Assembly (NCBI GenBank): GCA_037447435.1
Contig: JBBIGR010000025.1
Span: 1 to 64,000 of the forward strand
Source of the DNA: Fibrobacteria bacterium
GTDB lineage: Bacteria; Fibrobacterota; Chitinivibrionia; Chitinivibrionales; FEN-1185
Direction of reading: 5' to 3'
DNA: 64,000 nt
Shown here: positions 21,001 to 33,000 of the stretch, piece after piece
Layout of the letters: each line of letters starts with the position of its first letter
How positions within the stretch are numbered: the first letter of the stretch is position 1
Position numbers: made by a program

Positions 21001-24000
21001 GTACGGCCATGATTTGCAAGACCGTTGGTTCTATGGCTCACAGGTTGTCTGTAAATTACGGATGGTCGGACAATAATTTCCACTACACCGACAGTATCAT
21101 TACCCACGGCCCGACCGTTGCAAATGACGATTCGGTAAAAGGAATGGATAACAATTATTTTTCGGAATTCTCTTCCGTATACTCGAACACCTATGCGATA
21201 GACGATAAAAACAAATTGACTTCCCAAATCTTCATATCGTCGTCAAATGAAGGAATATTTTACCTGCCCGAAGCGGGCAATAACGACGGATCGGTACGAA
21301 ATACTGTTTTGTCTTTGATTGAATCGTATAAGTTTTGCTATAGTCCCAAACTATCGCTTGCGGTAATAGCAAAAGGAAAAACCGAAGACCAGCAATTCCG
21401 CAGGATCAGGCCCTTTTATTTAAGCATCGGGCCGATCGCAAAGGATATCAGCCAGCCGTTTGCGTCTCTGGAAACAATTGTCAAGTCATATGCGACCGCC
21501 TATTGTACCCTTAGCGGAACCGCAGGAATTAGTTACACCGGTTTTACTTTAAATAATCTTCTTGTTTCTTCGGACCAACTTTCGCCGCATTACCGGCGCA
21601 TCATCCCGAAAGCCGGACTCGAAGCCTCCTTCAAAACGCAAAACAGCCTCGATGCCCGGCTGGGAGCAGTTTACCGGTATGAAATCGATTCAACAAACGA
21701 CAGCATCACGCTTTTCGGCTCGATAGTTCCATTCGGCAGGACTTCAAAACAAGGGTTCGGCGGCGCTTTCGCCGACCTGAATTACCGTTTATTCGACAGT
21801 CTTGAACTTTCGGGCCAGCTCCGATACTCCGGGCGAAGTCCGGGGTTTTCGGAAAAGTATTCACAAGGTAGCCATGTGTCCGGCAACCCCGACCTTCGTC
21901 CGGAGTATCGATTGGAATATTCGCTCGGATTATCATTTTCCAATCCCGTATGTCTCATTTCGACTGCAGTTTTTGCCAGTACCACAAAAGACAAGATACT
22001 TTTTTTAGGCCATTCAAACATGTTCATACCAAAAAACGTTTCAAAAGTCGAGGGATGGGGGGTGGAAAACGACATCACCGTATCGCCGTTTTCCTGGATC
22101 TCTGTTGTAAATTCGGTATCCTACATGATCAATACCCTTAACTCGGACGAGATACCGATGTGGAACGGAAACGATGAGCCTCTTTTGCCCCGTTTGATCG
22201 ACAATCTGAATGCAAAAATAACGTATAAAAATTTTTATCTCTCACATTCGGCAAAATTCCAATCGGGCTATTTTACGGACCCCACCAATCTCGATTATAT
22301 CGAAAGTCGGCCGCAATTAGGCGCAACTATCGGATTCTTTTTCGGTGGGAATTTCGATTTATCGTATAGAATCGAAAATTATCTCAACGTACGCGATTAT
22401 GATTTTCAAAGGCCTTTGCCAGGAATAGCCCATTATGTTGTTTTGAAATACAGCTTGTAAAACATGTAAATACTTCACATTCACCATTAAGGCCGGAAAA
22501 TGCCGGCAAAGGAAAGATCATATGAAAAAAGGCTTGATCGTTGTATGTGCTGTTTCACTCTTGGCCGTCGGATGCATAAAGAAAGCAAGTCCCGTCGCTT
22601 TTCAAGGCGTGTCCGACCGTGCGGTTGTCGGTGTGACTATTTCGGCCGATTATTCCGCGGGCAATATCGGCCTTTACAGTATCACCGATTCTGTCGCCTA
22701 CAAAAACCTTTTATCTAATTGGATCGACAATGACATCAGAACCTATAACGGCGCCATTTATGTGCTCGAGCGATACGGAAAAGACAATATTCTCAAAATA
22801 AACGGGTCGGTAATCAACGGCACCGCTATTGCGTATGAAAAAAACATAGGAACATCCGTAAACATTCAGGATATTGCCTTTATCAACGACACAAAAGCAT
22901 ATATTACCGAATTGGGTAGCTCAAAATTAGCGATTTTCGATCCTTCTACCGGAACAACATCTGCGAAAACAATAGATTTATCCCCGTACAATACTCATTC
23001 GGGAATACCGAATGCGGATGATTTTCCTTATGCGGCGAAAGCGTTATATTATAACGACAGAGTGTATGTAGCTTGTCAACGGCTTACGGCAACTGCCGGC
23101 GGATTGCTTCTTACGACGGATACCAGTAAAATTCTCGTCATCAATTCGACAAAGGATACGATTGAAAAAGCCATCAATCTCTTCGACAAAAACCCGCAGG
23201 AACTTTCCATTTGCAATGGGAAATTGTATGTCGGCAGTTCCGGAACATGGGCTGTCAATGACGCCGGCGGTATAGAAGTCATCGATTTGGCTACAAACAC
23301 CAACACGGGAACGATCATAGACGAATCCGCCTTTTCCGGCGATATCGCATCGATCATCGTGGTAAGCGATACCAAAGGGTATGCCGTCGTATCGACGCCG
23401 TCATTTTCAACCGAGTTACATTCTTTTAACCCGCAGGCAAAAACCGTTGGGCCGAAAATATCGGGCTTAGACGCTCCTTGCAGCGGTCACATGGCCTTTG
23501 ACGGAACATATGTTTACGTAGGAGACAGAAGCGATAAGACCCCGGGAATAGTGATAATTGATCCGTCGACCGACGCAAAAGTCGGCTCGACAAAAGATAT
23601 CGGACTTCCGCCCAATTCACTTGCATTGCTGGAGACTTCGAAATAAAAAAACACACGGTCTTATTTGCTATAATAATCGCAAATAAGGCCGTAGTATAAA
23701 ATCTTTATAATAATTTACATTTTACTGTATTTTTATCAATGTGCTTCCCGATTTCTGGCTTTCGTAATTGAGCCTGATATAATCGGCGCTCATTGCTTTT
23801 TTGATCATCCTCAATTCGTCGATTTTTCCGGAAAACGCTTCAGCTGGATTCAAGCTCCAGGACCCGATATTCCACGGATTATTATTATCCGGAATCGCAG
23901 GAGCAGGGGTTCCTAAATTCTTTTGAATTAACAAAACCCCATTATAATAAAATTTCAAAGTTTGTCCATCATAGGTACCTGTCAAACAACTCCAAGTTTT

Positions 24001-30000: not shown

Positions 30001-33000
30001 TGGCCGTTAGGCAAAATAACTGCCTGATACAAACCCTGTACCTGACTGTTTTTTTTATGTATCGAGGTGTTTTGTGATTCGATATCCATGCAAAGACGAT
30101 CCAAATAATTGTGATTAACCAAATTTGGTCAAAGGTACCAATAATACATAATTATAGCAATAGGGACAATTTTTGCATAGGCATTTTTTATAAAAATTGA
30201 TTAAACATCAATAAAACATCGGTATATCATTATATCGTTGTATTCCGGACCTATTGCTACAATCGGAGGAAAATGGGATAAGGTATATTATACTCGAACA
30301 TTTGAAGTAAAAATCCCTTTAGAATGAGAATTTTAATCAATGAATGAATTTTCAAAACTAGCCTTAAGTCCTGCAATGATTTCAAATTTGGATAAATTAG
30401 GCTATGTCTCAATGACTCCCATACAGGCAGAAAGCATTCCCAGCATTCTCAATAAAAACGATGTTTTAGCTCAAGCCAAAACCGGCAGCGGAAAAACCGC
30501 CGCATTTGCTATCGGCGTTTTGCAAGACCTGAATCCGTCATATAATCAAGTGCAGGTTCTGGTTTTATGTCCAACACGGGAGTTGTCGGACCAGGTCGCA
30601 GTGGAAATGAGAAAACTTGCCAGATTTGCAAACAATATTAAAATTCTTACCTTATGCGGCGGAACGCCAATAAAGCCGCAAACTCTTTCTCTGGAACATC
30701 GGGCCCATATCGTCGTCGGCACGCCCGGTCGTATCGGAGACCATTTGCGAAGAGGAAACCTTATCCTTGATTATTGCAAAACCCTTGTCTTGGATGAAGC
30801 CGACCGTATGCTCGACATGGGATTTGAGGATGAAATAAACGAAATTGTTTCATTTGTCCCGGAAAACAGGCAAACGCTTTTGTTTTCCGCTACCTTTGCA
30901 GACCCAATCAAGGTTTTAAGTAAACGATTCCAAAACAACGCAAAAGAAATCACGGTTGAACATATTCATAAAACAACCGTTATCGCCCAACGTTTTTATG
31001 AAGTGGAATGGGAAAACAAGCTTTTCGCAACTGCAAAAATACTGTGGTCATATAAACCCGAATCCACGCTTATTTTTTGCAACACCAAACAACAATGCCG
31101 GGATCTGCTTGAATATTTGACTAAAACCAAGTTTCACGCCCTTTGCATCAACGGGGATCTTGAACAAAAAGAACGCACCGAAATGCTGACATTGTTTTCA
31201 AATCATAGCGCGTCGATACTCATTGGAACCGACGTCGCGGCCCGAGGTCTTGACATAAAAGATCTGAGTGCAGTCGTCAATTTTGACTTGCCGTACGATC
31301 CCGAAAGTTACGTCCACCGCATCGGCAGAACCGGCCGGGCCGGAAAAGAAGGACTCGCGTTTTCACTGATGACGCCGAACGAAACCCATAAACTCGATGA
31401 TATCAACCGTTACCAGAAAACAAAATTCAGACCTGAAACCACCGATGGATTAACTGCTTCCGGAGAATCTTTATTACCGCCGATGATGACCATTTCAATA
31501 AACGGCGGACGTAAAAGCAAAATTAGACCGGGCGATATTTTAGGTGCGCTCACCAAAGAAGCGGGATTTTCCGGTTCAAAAATAGGGAAAATTGATATTT
31601 TCGAATTGTTTGCATATATCGCGGTAGACAGAACAATTGCGCAGGAAGCGATACAAAAACTCATGTCTATTCCGATTAAAGGCAAACGGTTTATCGCACG
31701 CCTTCATGAATAATGATTTGTTTTCATTTAGTTTCTAAAGTCCTCAAATCTATATGCCGATACATTAAAAAAAGGAACCCGGAAGCTTTAGCACCTCCCT
31801 TGTGTGCGTCTGTTCACTCATAGCTTCCCCAAGTTTGCGGGTGACGCAGAAATCGCTATAAGGGTCCTTTCCCATAAGAAGGCAGATGTCATAATCTGCC
31901 TTCTGTATTTTTCTACCCGCTATCCCCTTTTTTATATTAATATTTTTTATTTTACGAGAATTTGTGTTTAAACGTAATTTAAAGAGCAATTCATAAATAT
32001 GGCGACTCATAAAGCCTTTGTCGACTGAATAACAATATTTTTCCGGCTGACTACCTACCTACCCATTACAGTGGATATGAAGTCTGTCGTTTAAACCTAA
32101 AAAAGATTGGGAATCATCTTTGAAGCAAACCATTCTTCCCATTGCAATGGTATTCCTGTTTTTAGCGGCTACTTTTACCAATGCTAAAACAACAAATAAA
32201 TACGGGAGCAGTGCACAAACAATTTCAACAGGTCTGTCGTCAACCGCAGCAACAGCAGCCTTTGAATCCAAATTCACTCCCTATTTTTCCTTCCGTACTA
32301 CTCATTCGACGATTCGCGGCAACGTTATTGCGCCAAAAGACGAAGATCTGTTCTTTCTGGCTAAACATTGGCAACTTTTATCACCCTCGTTTAAATCGTT
32401 GTACCTCAAAGCAACCGACTTGCCGTCGGGCTGGCAAACCTATGATTCACCGGGAGGACATTTCCAAATAATTTATTCCCTTACCGGAATCGATTCCGTG
32501 AACAAGGCGGACAGTATCGGGTATTCGAAGGACAGCTGGCGTATCAGACAAAGTGTCCCAAACGGAATACCGGATTACGTTGATGAGGTCGCTTTTGCCG
32601 CAGACAGCGCATGGTCGATGGAAGTCGATAGATTCGGTTTTAACAAACCGATATCATATGCGACCTCGAATTATCCGTCCGCCCGATACAAAATTCTCAT
32701 AAGAAAATTCGACGATATTACGGAAAGCGGGTATTACGGACAAACCTATCCTATGGCCTTATCCGGAAACGGTAAGGGATACAGCAGCTATTTTGAGCTT
32801 CGGAGCGAATGGTGGGTAGATCAAAATTGGCAGAAACCGGGTGCGACGAATTACACTCTGTATCCGGAAAATGCCGCCCGGGTAACTTGCATGCATGAAT
32901 TTTTCCATTCATGTCAATATGCAATGATTTGGCAAGAGATCGGGAATGTATTGCTCGATGATTTCCCTATCGCTTGGATAGAGGCGAGCGCGGTTCTCAT

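Follow-up and report, generated by a model that had tools for sequence, protein, structure and literature searches.

What does a three-gene string do that recurs several times in one Fibrobacterota genome and encodes a receptor-type kinase, a protein of about 300 residues and a much larger exported protein? We addressed this question with the copy found in a 64,000-nucleotide stretch of contig C25 (hereafter the window). The survey's finding had been that all three parts were duplicated together and form one sensor, in which a secreted, lectin-like giant binds a polymer outside the cell and the small anchored protein couples it to the kinase. The window triad comprises the following features.

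28248-30089, minus strand: receptor-type Hanks Ser/Thr kinase, 613 aa (Pkinase 153 bits, cut-off 31.7)
30122, minus strand: upstream TTG, an alternative kinase start giving a product of 624 aa
27273-28238, minus strand: middle (anchor) gene, 321 aa, with signal peptide, beta-helix, helical hairpin and terminal strand
23722-27225, minus strand: large gene, a lipoprotein-type stalk protein of 1167 aa with DUF2341 and Laminin_G_3

Nine bases separate the kinase from the middle gene and 47 bases the middle from the large gene; promoter and terminator scans gave counts near shuffle levels (16 vs 11.9 and 11 vs 9.5, respectively). As the survey had stated, the middle protein is without a Pfam match and belongs to a family of seven; it has no NCBIfam match either. 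The seven members encoded in this genome are full-length and share 25-43% identity wherever BLASTP could align them. The size of the kinase, its single membrane span and the 26-47% identity among the triad kinases (over their long alignments) were also reproduced; each of these kinases contains one hydrophobic span that starts at residue 335-355. The repeated gene order stood only in part: it is co-oriented at four copies (C12, C16, C25 and C30), but the C47 kinase gene points away from its neighbours and is read divergently. The C5 copy indeed adjoins no kinase, but it also adjoins no giant, and a NAGidase-family gene comes next. The large proteins, reported as 28-41% identical, fall into two families, one from C25, C16, C30 and C12 (28-34% mutual identity) and one from C47 and C22 (41%), with no BLASTP match between them at E ≤ 1e-3. 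The claim that all three parts are paralogous is therefore limited to four copies. Laminin_G_3 was correctly assigned to the window giant, but LamG, as part of a DUF2341+LamG tip, occurs in only two of the six large proteins of this genome (window and C16).

The triad is real and reaches far beyond this genome. Distinct copies of the middle gene in other genomes numbered 216; a kinase lies upstream in 159 of 201 cases and a lipoprotein-type gene downstream in 152 of 203. Complete triads account for 122 of 191 foreign loci; 29 have the kinase without the lipoprotein, 20 the lipoprotein without the kinase, and 20 neither. When foreign loci were collected with no regard to the kinase, 40 complete triads were found among 73 evaluable cases, with a kinase upstream in 53 of 75. 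This arrangement is far beyond chance. Across 151 genomes, kinase and anchor were both present in 56, both absent from 83 and discordant in 12 (six and six), and their copy numbers correlate (0.77). In five genomes of one family a kinase was found and an anchor was not detected. Trees of the cassette members agree (Mantel r 0.63-0.83, 35 triads). Genes that recur next to the loci encode IMPDH, histidine kinases and housekeeping functions, with no conserved output gene in the 31 of 45 cluster representatives that were scanned.

We then assigned domains to the window kinase.

29202-29969, minus strand: catalytic domain, residues 41-296, with Pkinase match and HRD and DFG motifs
29004-29060, minus strand: single inner-membrane span, residues 344-362, hydropathy 2.11
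28779-29003, minus strand: low-complexity periplasmic linker, about 75 aa
28251-28778, minus strand: periplasmic TPR-like helical domain; profile matches to consensus TPR proteins, best E 6e-6
28263-28379, minus strand: docking helices, residues 571-586 and 601-609, the interface in the complex model

Judged by its Pkinase domain and intact catalytic motifs, this protein is a Hanks-type Ser/Thr kinase. Among 79 relatives the HRDxKP motif is found in 65 and DFG in 72, and the linker measures 47-147 aa (mean 91). The closest curated model for the catalytic domain is of the PknB/Stk1 type (NF033483), with 236.7 bits against a cut-off of 450; unlike those PASTA kinases, the window protein has a TPR domain and gave no match to PASTA repeats.

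The anchor protein could be divided as follows.

27606-28067, minus strand: short right-handed beta-helix, residues 58-211; best fold match Z 10.8, rmsd 2.4, 114 residues
27801-27824, minus strand: family-specific loop, residues 139-146, ending P-N-P-F-D-W; predicted kinase-docking interface
27276-27545, minus strand: two long helices, one half of each being Gly/Ala-rich and weakly hydrophobic
27276-27299, minus strand: last eight residues, alternating like an outer-membrane beta-signal and ending in Phe

The AlphaFold2 model (mean pLDDT 87.6) contains the beta-helix that the survey had guessed. Foldseek with the whole protein returned no match at E ≤ 0.001, and a sequence search of solved structures nothing at E < 0.01. 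VIA matches to the hairpin (Z up to 9.9) were rejected as relatives, being generic coiled hairpins, and a search for longer fused anchor forms (8000 candidates scored) returned 21 generic beta-helix proteins.

Modelling of the complex places the TPR domain on the PNPFDW loop with a score of 0.79, compared to 0.00 for the best of three controls. Of 157 solved complexes, 116 attain the mark used for this score, as do 2 of 215 mismatched pairs; this calibration is rough here given our own alignments. Docking runs share at least 96% of contacts with partner pLDDT of at least 79; searches among the sequences of solved structures turned up no comparable complex. The predicted interface includes the invariant kinase Trp578 and anchor residues Phe104 and Pro143 (98% each), and the conserved anchor surface coincides with it. 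The loop motif is present in 202 of 216 anchors and in none of 32 loops of generic beta-helices, and is kept in 36 of 42 anchors that adjoin no kinase. The top four of 46,640 cross-protein residue pairs ranked by covariation join residues of this interface, although 56 of the sequence pairs used were also part of the model's input. This covariation survives within-clade shuffling (10.4-11.9 vs 10.5 observed) and is therefore a subfamily-level signal that is inseparable from descent. A kinase/anchor pair split between contigs in this genome is still matched by clade (r 0.90). Because the docking model agrees with conserved adjacency and co-occurrence across genomes, the survey's coupling idea is supported for the kinase and its anchor.

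Which membrane holds the anchor? Its final residue is Phe in 202 of 216 members (background 6.9%); large hydrophobic residues occupy positions -1, -3, -5 and -7 in 96-98% of members and positions -2, -4, -6 and -8 in 0-26%. The BAM-type beta-signal consensus consists of a terminal aromatic residue with alternating hydrophobic positions, and the anchors display this pattern. Their two spans, with 20% Gly, are less hydrophobic than that of the kinase (1.57 and 1.61 vs 2.28), and one anchor, on a single contig, is fused to a domain related to the N-terminus of an OmpA-type protein. Going by these sequence patterns, the most likely place of the anchor is the outer membrane, and the kinase-anchor link would then span the periplasm. 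We consider it rather unlikely that the anchor is instead a common type of inner-membrane protein with two spans, bound to the kinase as a co-receptor on the periplasmic face, with the lipoprotein as an independent neighbour or regulated product. The binding model would fit that arrangement equally well, about half of the anchor spans reach a hydropathy of 1.6 (52% and 58%), and AlphaFold2 renders the last residues as helix, not strand. Speaking against it are the near-invariant terminal Phe with its strand alternation and the 47-147-residue kinase linker, which would be superfluous. The positive-inside rule is a common guide to topology, and the distribution of Lys/Arg (2.9 before the first span, 1.6 after) runs contrary to what it predicts for this topology.

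The large partner shows a conserved base and a variable end.

27157-27159, minus strand: Cys23, followed by S-N-D-Y-N-P-F
26236-27159, minus strand: conserved N-terminal tandem of Ig/PKD-like beta-sandwiches (AlphaFold2 pLDDT 91.1; fold matches)
23776-24609, minus strand: variable tip, with DUF2341 at 24388-24609 and Laminin_G_3 at 23776-24240

At their N-terminus these proteins carry a hydrophobic stretch, then a Cys and an N-P motif, so they appear to be of lipoprotein type rather than, as had been proposed, freely secreted. A Cys follows a hydrophobic stretch in 147 of 152 downstream partners, a set partly selected on that pattern. The residue before this Cys is mostly F, S, Q or L, while A, G or S is canonical in lipoprotein signals. 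The conserved part continues as an Ig-like stalk, for which a sequence search of solved structures with the N-terminus as query gave nothing at E < 0.01; the exchangeable tips are LamG, Calx-beta, FN3, PKD or unassigned to a family.

A polysaccharide sensor in which a LamG giant binds polymer and the anchor relays the signal to the kinase is an unlikely account of the module. This reading draws on the DUF2341+LamG tips in the window and on C16, on the position of the C5 anchor upstream of the NAGidase gene, and on the cultured relative Chitinispirillum, which lives on chitin (PMC4814513). Against it, LamG was found in only 8 of 50 foreign partners, so polysaccharide sensing is unsupported as the general function; 23 of the 50 have no Pfam match, and neither a glycoside hydrolase nor a named carbohydrate-binding family is among the matches listed for them. 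No glycan-uptake gene recurs among the neighbours, NAGidase adjoins only eight loci, and anchor-lipoprotein covariation is not above shuffles (6.6 vs 5.0-6.3); for kinase and lipoprotein the raw maximum was 5.3. The LamG-bearing subset may nevertheless sense polysaccharides.

Quite improbable is a display or quality-control function, in which the anchor would hold or export the lipoprotein at the outer membrane and the kinase would monitor the load. The frequent position of the lipoprotein gene downstream of the anchor and the 20 loci with both genes and no kinase would fit, as would an anchor-type gene on C3 with a CsgG/LpoB-like head that also precedes lipoprotein-type genes. Against this stand the lack of covariation between anchor and lipoprotein and the existence of related lipoproteins without an adjoining anchor; at least seven contigs of this genome carry solitary N-P-F lipoproteins of a similar kind, which weakens the reading as a dedicated exporter. 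In addition, one clade keeps kinase and anchor with the giant missing from 10 of 12 loci. Hardly credible is the idea that the beta-helix itself is a small polysaccharide lyase or binder under kinase control: it resembles alginate and pectate lyases in part (Z 8.8-9.0), but with rmsd > 4, level with unrelated beta-helices, only about 150 residues form the beta-helix, the invariant residues are Gly, Phe and Trp, and the conserved surface is the kinase interface.

The giant-less clade is represented in the window by a second locus.

47512-49542, plus strand: paralogous TPR-type kinase adjoining type VI secretion (T6SS) genes; its cognate anchor gene is on contig C5
46713-47405, plus strand: PEGA-domain protein upstream of this kinase, with a two-helix C-terminus ending in Phe

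A PEGA-domain gene precedes the kinase in nine of the 12 loci of this clade, and tssK adjoins five of the 12 within limited flanks; no tssK match was found at loci of other kinase clades.

Taken together, we lean, with only slightly better than even confidence, towards a paralog-specific trans-envelope kinase relay that would work like PpkA-TagR/TssW but be built from new parts. The kinase would reside in the inner membrane and send its TPR domain across the periplasm on the long linker, where it is predicted to dock on the dedicated loop of the beta-helix. After export, the beta-helix would stay periplasmic while the glycine-rich hairpin enters the outer membrane, guided by the beta-signal-like last strand and with its 40-residue tip pointing outward. 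At most loci the co-encoded lipoprotein would form an Ig stalk with an exchangeable tip, likely a surface probe. In what is the weakest step, engagement of a surface, a polymer or a neighbour cell by the stalk might cluster the anchors, so that the kinase dimerises and becomes active. The output may be phosphorylation of cytoplasmic targets, plausibly FHA-domain proteins (eight FHA matches lie in six open frames of this genome, none at a triad), or, in the giant-less clade, plausibly T6SS assembly.

Known systems share elements with this relay. PpkA-TagQ/TagR of the Pseudomonas aeruginosa H1-T6SS also combines an inner-membrane Ser/Thr kinase, a lipoprotein and a periplasmic partner with a short loop that fits the kinase's periplasmic domain, and one clade described here likewise adjoins T6SS genes. 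TagR is an FGE-sulfatase-family protein held by TagQ (PMC13713981), whereas the partner here combines a beta-helix with a membrane hairpin of its own, and none of 76 anchor members gave an FGE-sulfatase-type match. The modules described here further differ by the TPR ectodomain, the 500-1400-aa Ig-stalk lipoprotein and their multiplicity (up to about ten per genome), mostly away from T6SS genes. In TssW-PpkA-Fha of Acidovorax citrulli the inner-membrane Ser/Thr kinase depends, for both its placement and its activity, on an outer-membrane protein bound to its periplasmic domain; this is a single, T6SS-dedicated system, and PMC12607579, as far as consulted, describes no beta-helix, hairpin or stalk lipoprotein. 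DUF5683 (PF18935) and Borrelia P13-type helical outer-membrane proteins share hydrophobic helices and an aromatic strand end (PMC6879480 for P13). DUF5683 was also the Atlas lead for the anchor (0.77), and a profile-profile comparison by hhalign gave only 57.9% over 26 columns, with 0.3% for the reversed control and a template built from 12 sequences. The window anchor does not match the DUF5683 Pfam model, which is absent among the matches listed for 131 anchors (25 of 58 families), leaving at most one member; DUF5683 proteins have an extra beta-hairpin that the anchor lacks. A DUF5683 protein of this genome weakly matches the P13 model (E 0.0013). In cell-surface signalling by TonB-dependent transducers (FecA-FecR-FecI, PupB-PupR), a small periplasmic docking domain of an outer-membrane protein binds a single-span inner-membrane transducer at the latter's periplasmic domain. 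Such transducers show cognate specificity among paralogs. Unlike them, the anchor model contains no TonB-dependent barrel, no anti-sigma or ECF sigma gene turned up in the 31 of 45 representatives of recurrent-neighbour clusters that were scanned, and the output is a Hanks kinase.

A broader proposal is possible, albeit doubtful: a new class of non-barrel, non-lipoprotein outer-membrane transducers, made of oligomeric helical hairpins that each finish with a single beta-strand and carry interchangeable periplasmic heads (beta-helix, PEGA, TPR-like, CsgG-like). They would hold a surface Ig-stalk lipoprotein outside and a cognate kinase inside, and would give these bacteria a set of receptors for contact or force that can be enlarged. 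If this is true, hairpin-oligomer receptors would function in the manner of animal adhesion receptors connected to a Ser/Thr kinase.

To our knowledge, few routes lead from the surface to the cytoplasm of Gram-negative bacteria: TonB-dependent transducers that act on sigma factors, two-component envelope sensors, and the T6SS kinase PpkA. In the little-studied bacterial group that has the triad in many copies, it appears to be a new means of relaying external signals inward: as the complex model suggests, a kinase seems to grip a previously undescribed anchor protein, whose place is probably the outer membrane, and the adjacent gene encodes a long stalk protein, likely at the surface. This would be an order-wide, repeatedly duplicated kinase route, and its defined, mutable interface and cognate paralog pairs make specificity directly testable. 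As a putative family of helical anchors of the outer membrane that carry a beta-signal, the middle proteins bear on how non-barrel proteins may enter the outer membrane, and on how large lipoproteins stay at the surface in Fibrobacterota.

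The window, contig C25 of its genome, carries the receptor kinase, the middle protein (hereafter the anchor) and the large lipoprotein-type partner in a row:

28248-30089, minus strand: kinase (Pfam Pkinase)
27273-28238, minus strand: middle gene, 321 aa, no Pfam match, as the survey's finding had stated
23722-27225, minus strand: large gene, 1167 aa, Pfam DUF2341 and Laminin_G_3 at the end of the protein

The gaps between these genes measure 9 and 47 bases. The middle protein is encoded at full length seven times in the genome, and the three-gene string described in the survey's finding is complete and co-oriented at four of these loci (contigs C12, C16, C25 and C30), but at C47 the kinase is divergent. 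The copies on C22 and C5 indeed lack a kinase, and that on C5 also lacks the large gene. The large proteins fall into two families, so that paralogy of all three parts holds for four copies. TPR-type kinases and anchors number seven each in this genome. A TonB-dependent receptor gene and a DUF5074 lipoprotein-type gene (20241-23646), which we take to resemble a vitamin B12 uptake pair, converge on the end of the triad; they were not seen as recurrent neighbours.

Other genomes had not been counted before. Of 31 genomes from this order, 28 contain a match to the middle gene, and relatives with names belong to Chitinivibrionales, Chitinispirillaceae and other Fibrobacterota bins. In a first foreign set (the 80 best matches listed, two apparent duplicates left out) the evaluable loci show a kinase directly upstream in 53 of 75 cases, a downstream lipoprotein-type gene in 55 of 78 and both in 40 of 73. 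An enlarged set of 216 copies (the first set plus later recruits, identical proteins removed) shows the kinase at 159 of 201, the lipoprotein-type gene at 152 of 203 and complete triads at 122 of 191 loci, counts biased towards the kinase because the recruits were drawn with an alignment of kinase-adjacent copies. Searches of 151 genomes of the phylum for the anchor (cut-off E ≤ 1e-25) and for the outer domain of the kinase (cut-off E ≤ 1e-10) gave 56 genomes with both, 83 with neither, 6 with only the anchor and 6 with only the kinase; copy numbers correlate at 0.77, although related genomes are not independent. In family f10, the 55 genomes searched yielded neither part. Two anchor-only genomes have a divergent kinase adjoining. 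Beside the TPR kinase of five kinase-only genomes, all of family f9 (L345-L349), no anchor was detected; there the kinase is followed by a gene that we assume to be RNase D-like. Trees of the three parts agree (Mantel r 0.63-0.83, 35 triads), which indicates duplication as a cassette and does not show contact. In L350 and L352, stretches from outside the order, a divergent kinase-anchor pair directly precedes a gene presumably resembling a plasmid replication initiator, a neighbour hinting at mobility.

Catalytic motifs are intact in most triad-type kinases. These kinases have a single span of strong hydrophobicity (mean 2.28, n = 47), then 47-147 residues of linker rich in Pro, Ala, Ser and Lys, and finally a helical domain; the profile of this domain matches consensus TPR proteins. 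On C47 the divergent TPR kinase has on its 3' side a second kinase without membrane span (L004, 2618-4255), a candidate for its downstream target.

An AlphaFold2 model of the anchor (pLDDT 87.6), the structure missing so far, reveals the beta-helix that the survey's finding had guessed (58-211) and two long helices (232-270 and 284-320). In fold it comes closest to the beta-helix of a phage tail (Z 10.8, rmsd 2.4, 114 residues), and the agreement with lyases is only partial. A hydrophobic N-terminal stretch occurs in 196 of 209 anchors. Hydrophobicity is weak in both C-terminal segments (1.57 and 1.61), which contain 20% Gly (n = 84), and basic residues are commoner before the first of them than after. 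The last residue is Phe in 202 of 216 anchors versus 6.9% of the genome's 2321 long ORFs, and the final eight residues alternate strictly; a terminal Phe with alternating last residues is the pattern of the outer-membrane beta-signal. In one database protein, on one contig only, a whole anchor is fused to a preceding domain; this domain is related to the N-terminal part of another protein (E 1.5e-17), and we take that other protein to end in an OmpA-type motif. A 1004-aa protein on C3 combines the same beta-helix and docking loop with a region that is barrel-like by eye and has no family match. Location of the anchor in the outer membrane is thus probable, although the AlphaFold2 monomer, which keeps the C-terminus helical, counts against it. 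According to the accessible part of PMC6879480, P13 is an oligomer of helical type in the outer membrane. The anchor might be linked to DUF5683/P13: the window protein does not match the DUF5683 Pfam model, and profile-profile comparison gave 57.9% over 26 columns.

On C3 a secreted FecR-domain protein precedes the 1004-aa protein (L007, 1151-6349), and similar frames of 900-1100 aa are present in many relatives. Also on C3 (L091, 2995-8617), a CsgG/LpoB-like head sits on an anchor of the same kind; Ig/B-repeat proteins come next, one of them with a GH20 domain at its end, and an FGE-sulfatase/PKD gene is divergent. Mirror-image loci on C17 and C23 (L089, 5853-8258; L090, 917-9457) encode kinases whose last domain is PEGA; the proteins next to them have a head that is helical and by eye TPR-like, two hydrophobic helices and, at the end, an aromatic strand. 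The loci include a lipoprotein-type gene, and C17 runs on into a GAF/sigma-54 activator.

The modelled complex of TPR domain and mature anchor scores 0.79 versus 0.00 for the best control; the mark for such scores, which 116 of the 157 solved complexes and 2 of the 215 mismatched pairs attained, is rough here since own alignments were used. Runs share at least 96% of contacts, with partner pLDDT of at least 79. Kinase helices 571-586 and 601-609 rest on anchor loop 139-144, Asn103, Phe104, Val169, Gly190 and Lys191; kinase Trp578 is invariant, and anchor Phe104 and Pro143 are each 98% conserved. The docking-loop motif P-[FYW]-D-W occurs in 202 of 216 anchors and in 0 of 32 equivalent loops of generic beta-helices. 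Covariation was scored across 153 kinase-anchor pairs; of 46,640 residue pairs between the two proteins, the top four connect interface residues (10.5 versus 5.0-6.2 for full shuffles). Since within-clade shuffling leaves this signal intact, the covariation reflects subfamily differences and is independent neither of descent nor of the complex model. Direct kinase-anchor binding is quite likely. The proposed role of the small anchored protein as coupler is therefore backed on the kinase side, but anchor-large partner covariation did not rise above shuffles.

The large partner begins with a hydrophobic stretch and a Cys, mostly followed by x4-N-P-F/Y, and continues in tandem Ig/PKD-like sandwiches. 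Among 50 of 57 foreign partners scanned (7 truncated proteins left out), LamG occurs in 8, DUF2341 in 6, Calx-beta in 4, other Ig-like domains in many and nothing in 23. With LamG in only 2 of 6 large proteins of this genome as well, the view of a lectin-like giant as general polysaccharide sensor is not supported; sugar binding would be, at most, a trait of some tips. This genome also encodes related lipoproteins that have no anchor next to them. The large partner is a usual, not obligatory, third member of the module. Giants of 2484 and 2833 aa (C49:10705-18159 and C33:37343-45844) carry four DUF2341-LamG tip units.

A second kinase of TPR type lies in the window:

47512-49542: TPR-type kinase

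By clade it pairs with the lone anchor of C5 (r 0.90), and relatives of the two adjoin each other elsewhere. At 40700-49542, type VI secretion genes (IcmF/TssM by Pfam, a TssK relative, and a gene that we take, by position and recall, to be TssL-like) diverge from a PEGA-anchor gene and this kinase; no TssJ was noticed among them, and the PEGA protein might serve as partner in the outer membrane. Relatives repeat the gene order tssK, PEGA-anchor, kinase, beta-helix anchor. At 10 of 12 loci of this clade the large partner is absent.

Domain anatomy, conserved order, co-occurrence and a confident modelled kinase-anchor interface are established computationally. In the mechanism that we propose, the anchor would reside in the outer membrane, the stalk formed by the large partner would be exposed at the cell surface, clustering would be the trigger and FHA proteins would be the kinase targets. 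Whether the stalk acts through the anchor is an even bet. None of the eight FHA matches in the genome lies at a triad, and no output gene travelling with the cassette was found among its neighbours. At C15:94801-98069 an FHA protein, a presumably metallophosphoesterase-like gene and an N-P lipoprotein related to the stalk family stand in a row, a candidate output locus.

According to the accessible parts of the sources, a 13-residue TagR loop is modelled in a PpkA pocket (TagQ/TagR-PpkA, PMC13713981), and in TssW-PpkA an outer-membrane protein binds the kinase (PMC12607579). As far as these parts describe them, the triad module works like both systems but lies outside the TagQ/TagR-PpkA kind, since the fold of the kinase's partner differs. 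It likewise parallels cell-surface signalling, but without barrel or sigma. We found no description of the cassette in the open literature (subscription papers and supplements aside), nor any mention in the accessible text of PMC7159879 or PMC4814513, and named members are "hypothetical" in the seven clusters looked up. We read the cassette as a variant form of trans-envelope kinase signalling, assembled from parts that had not been described.
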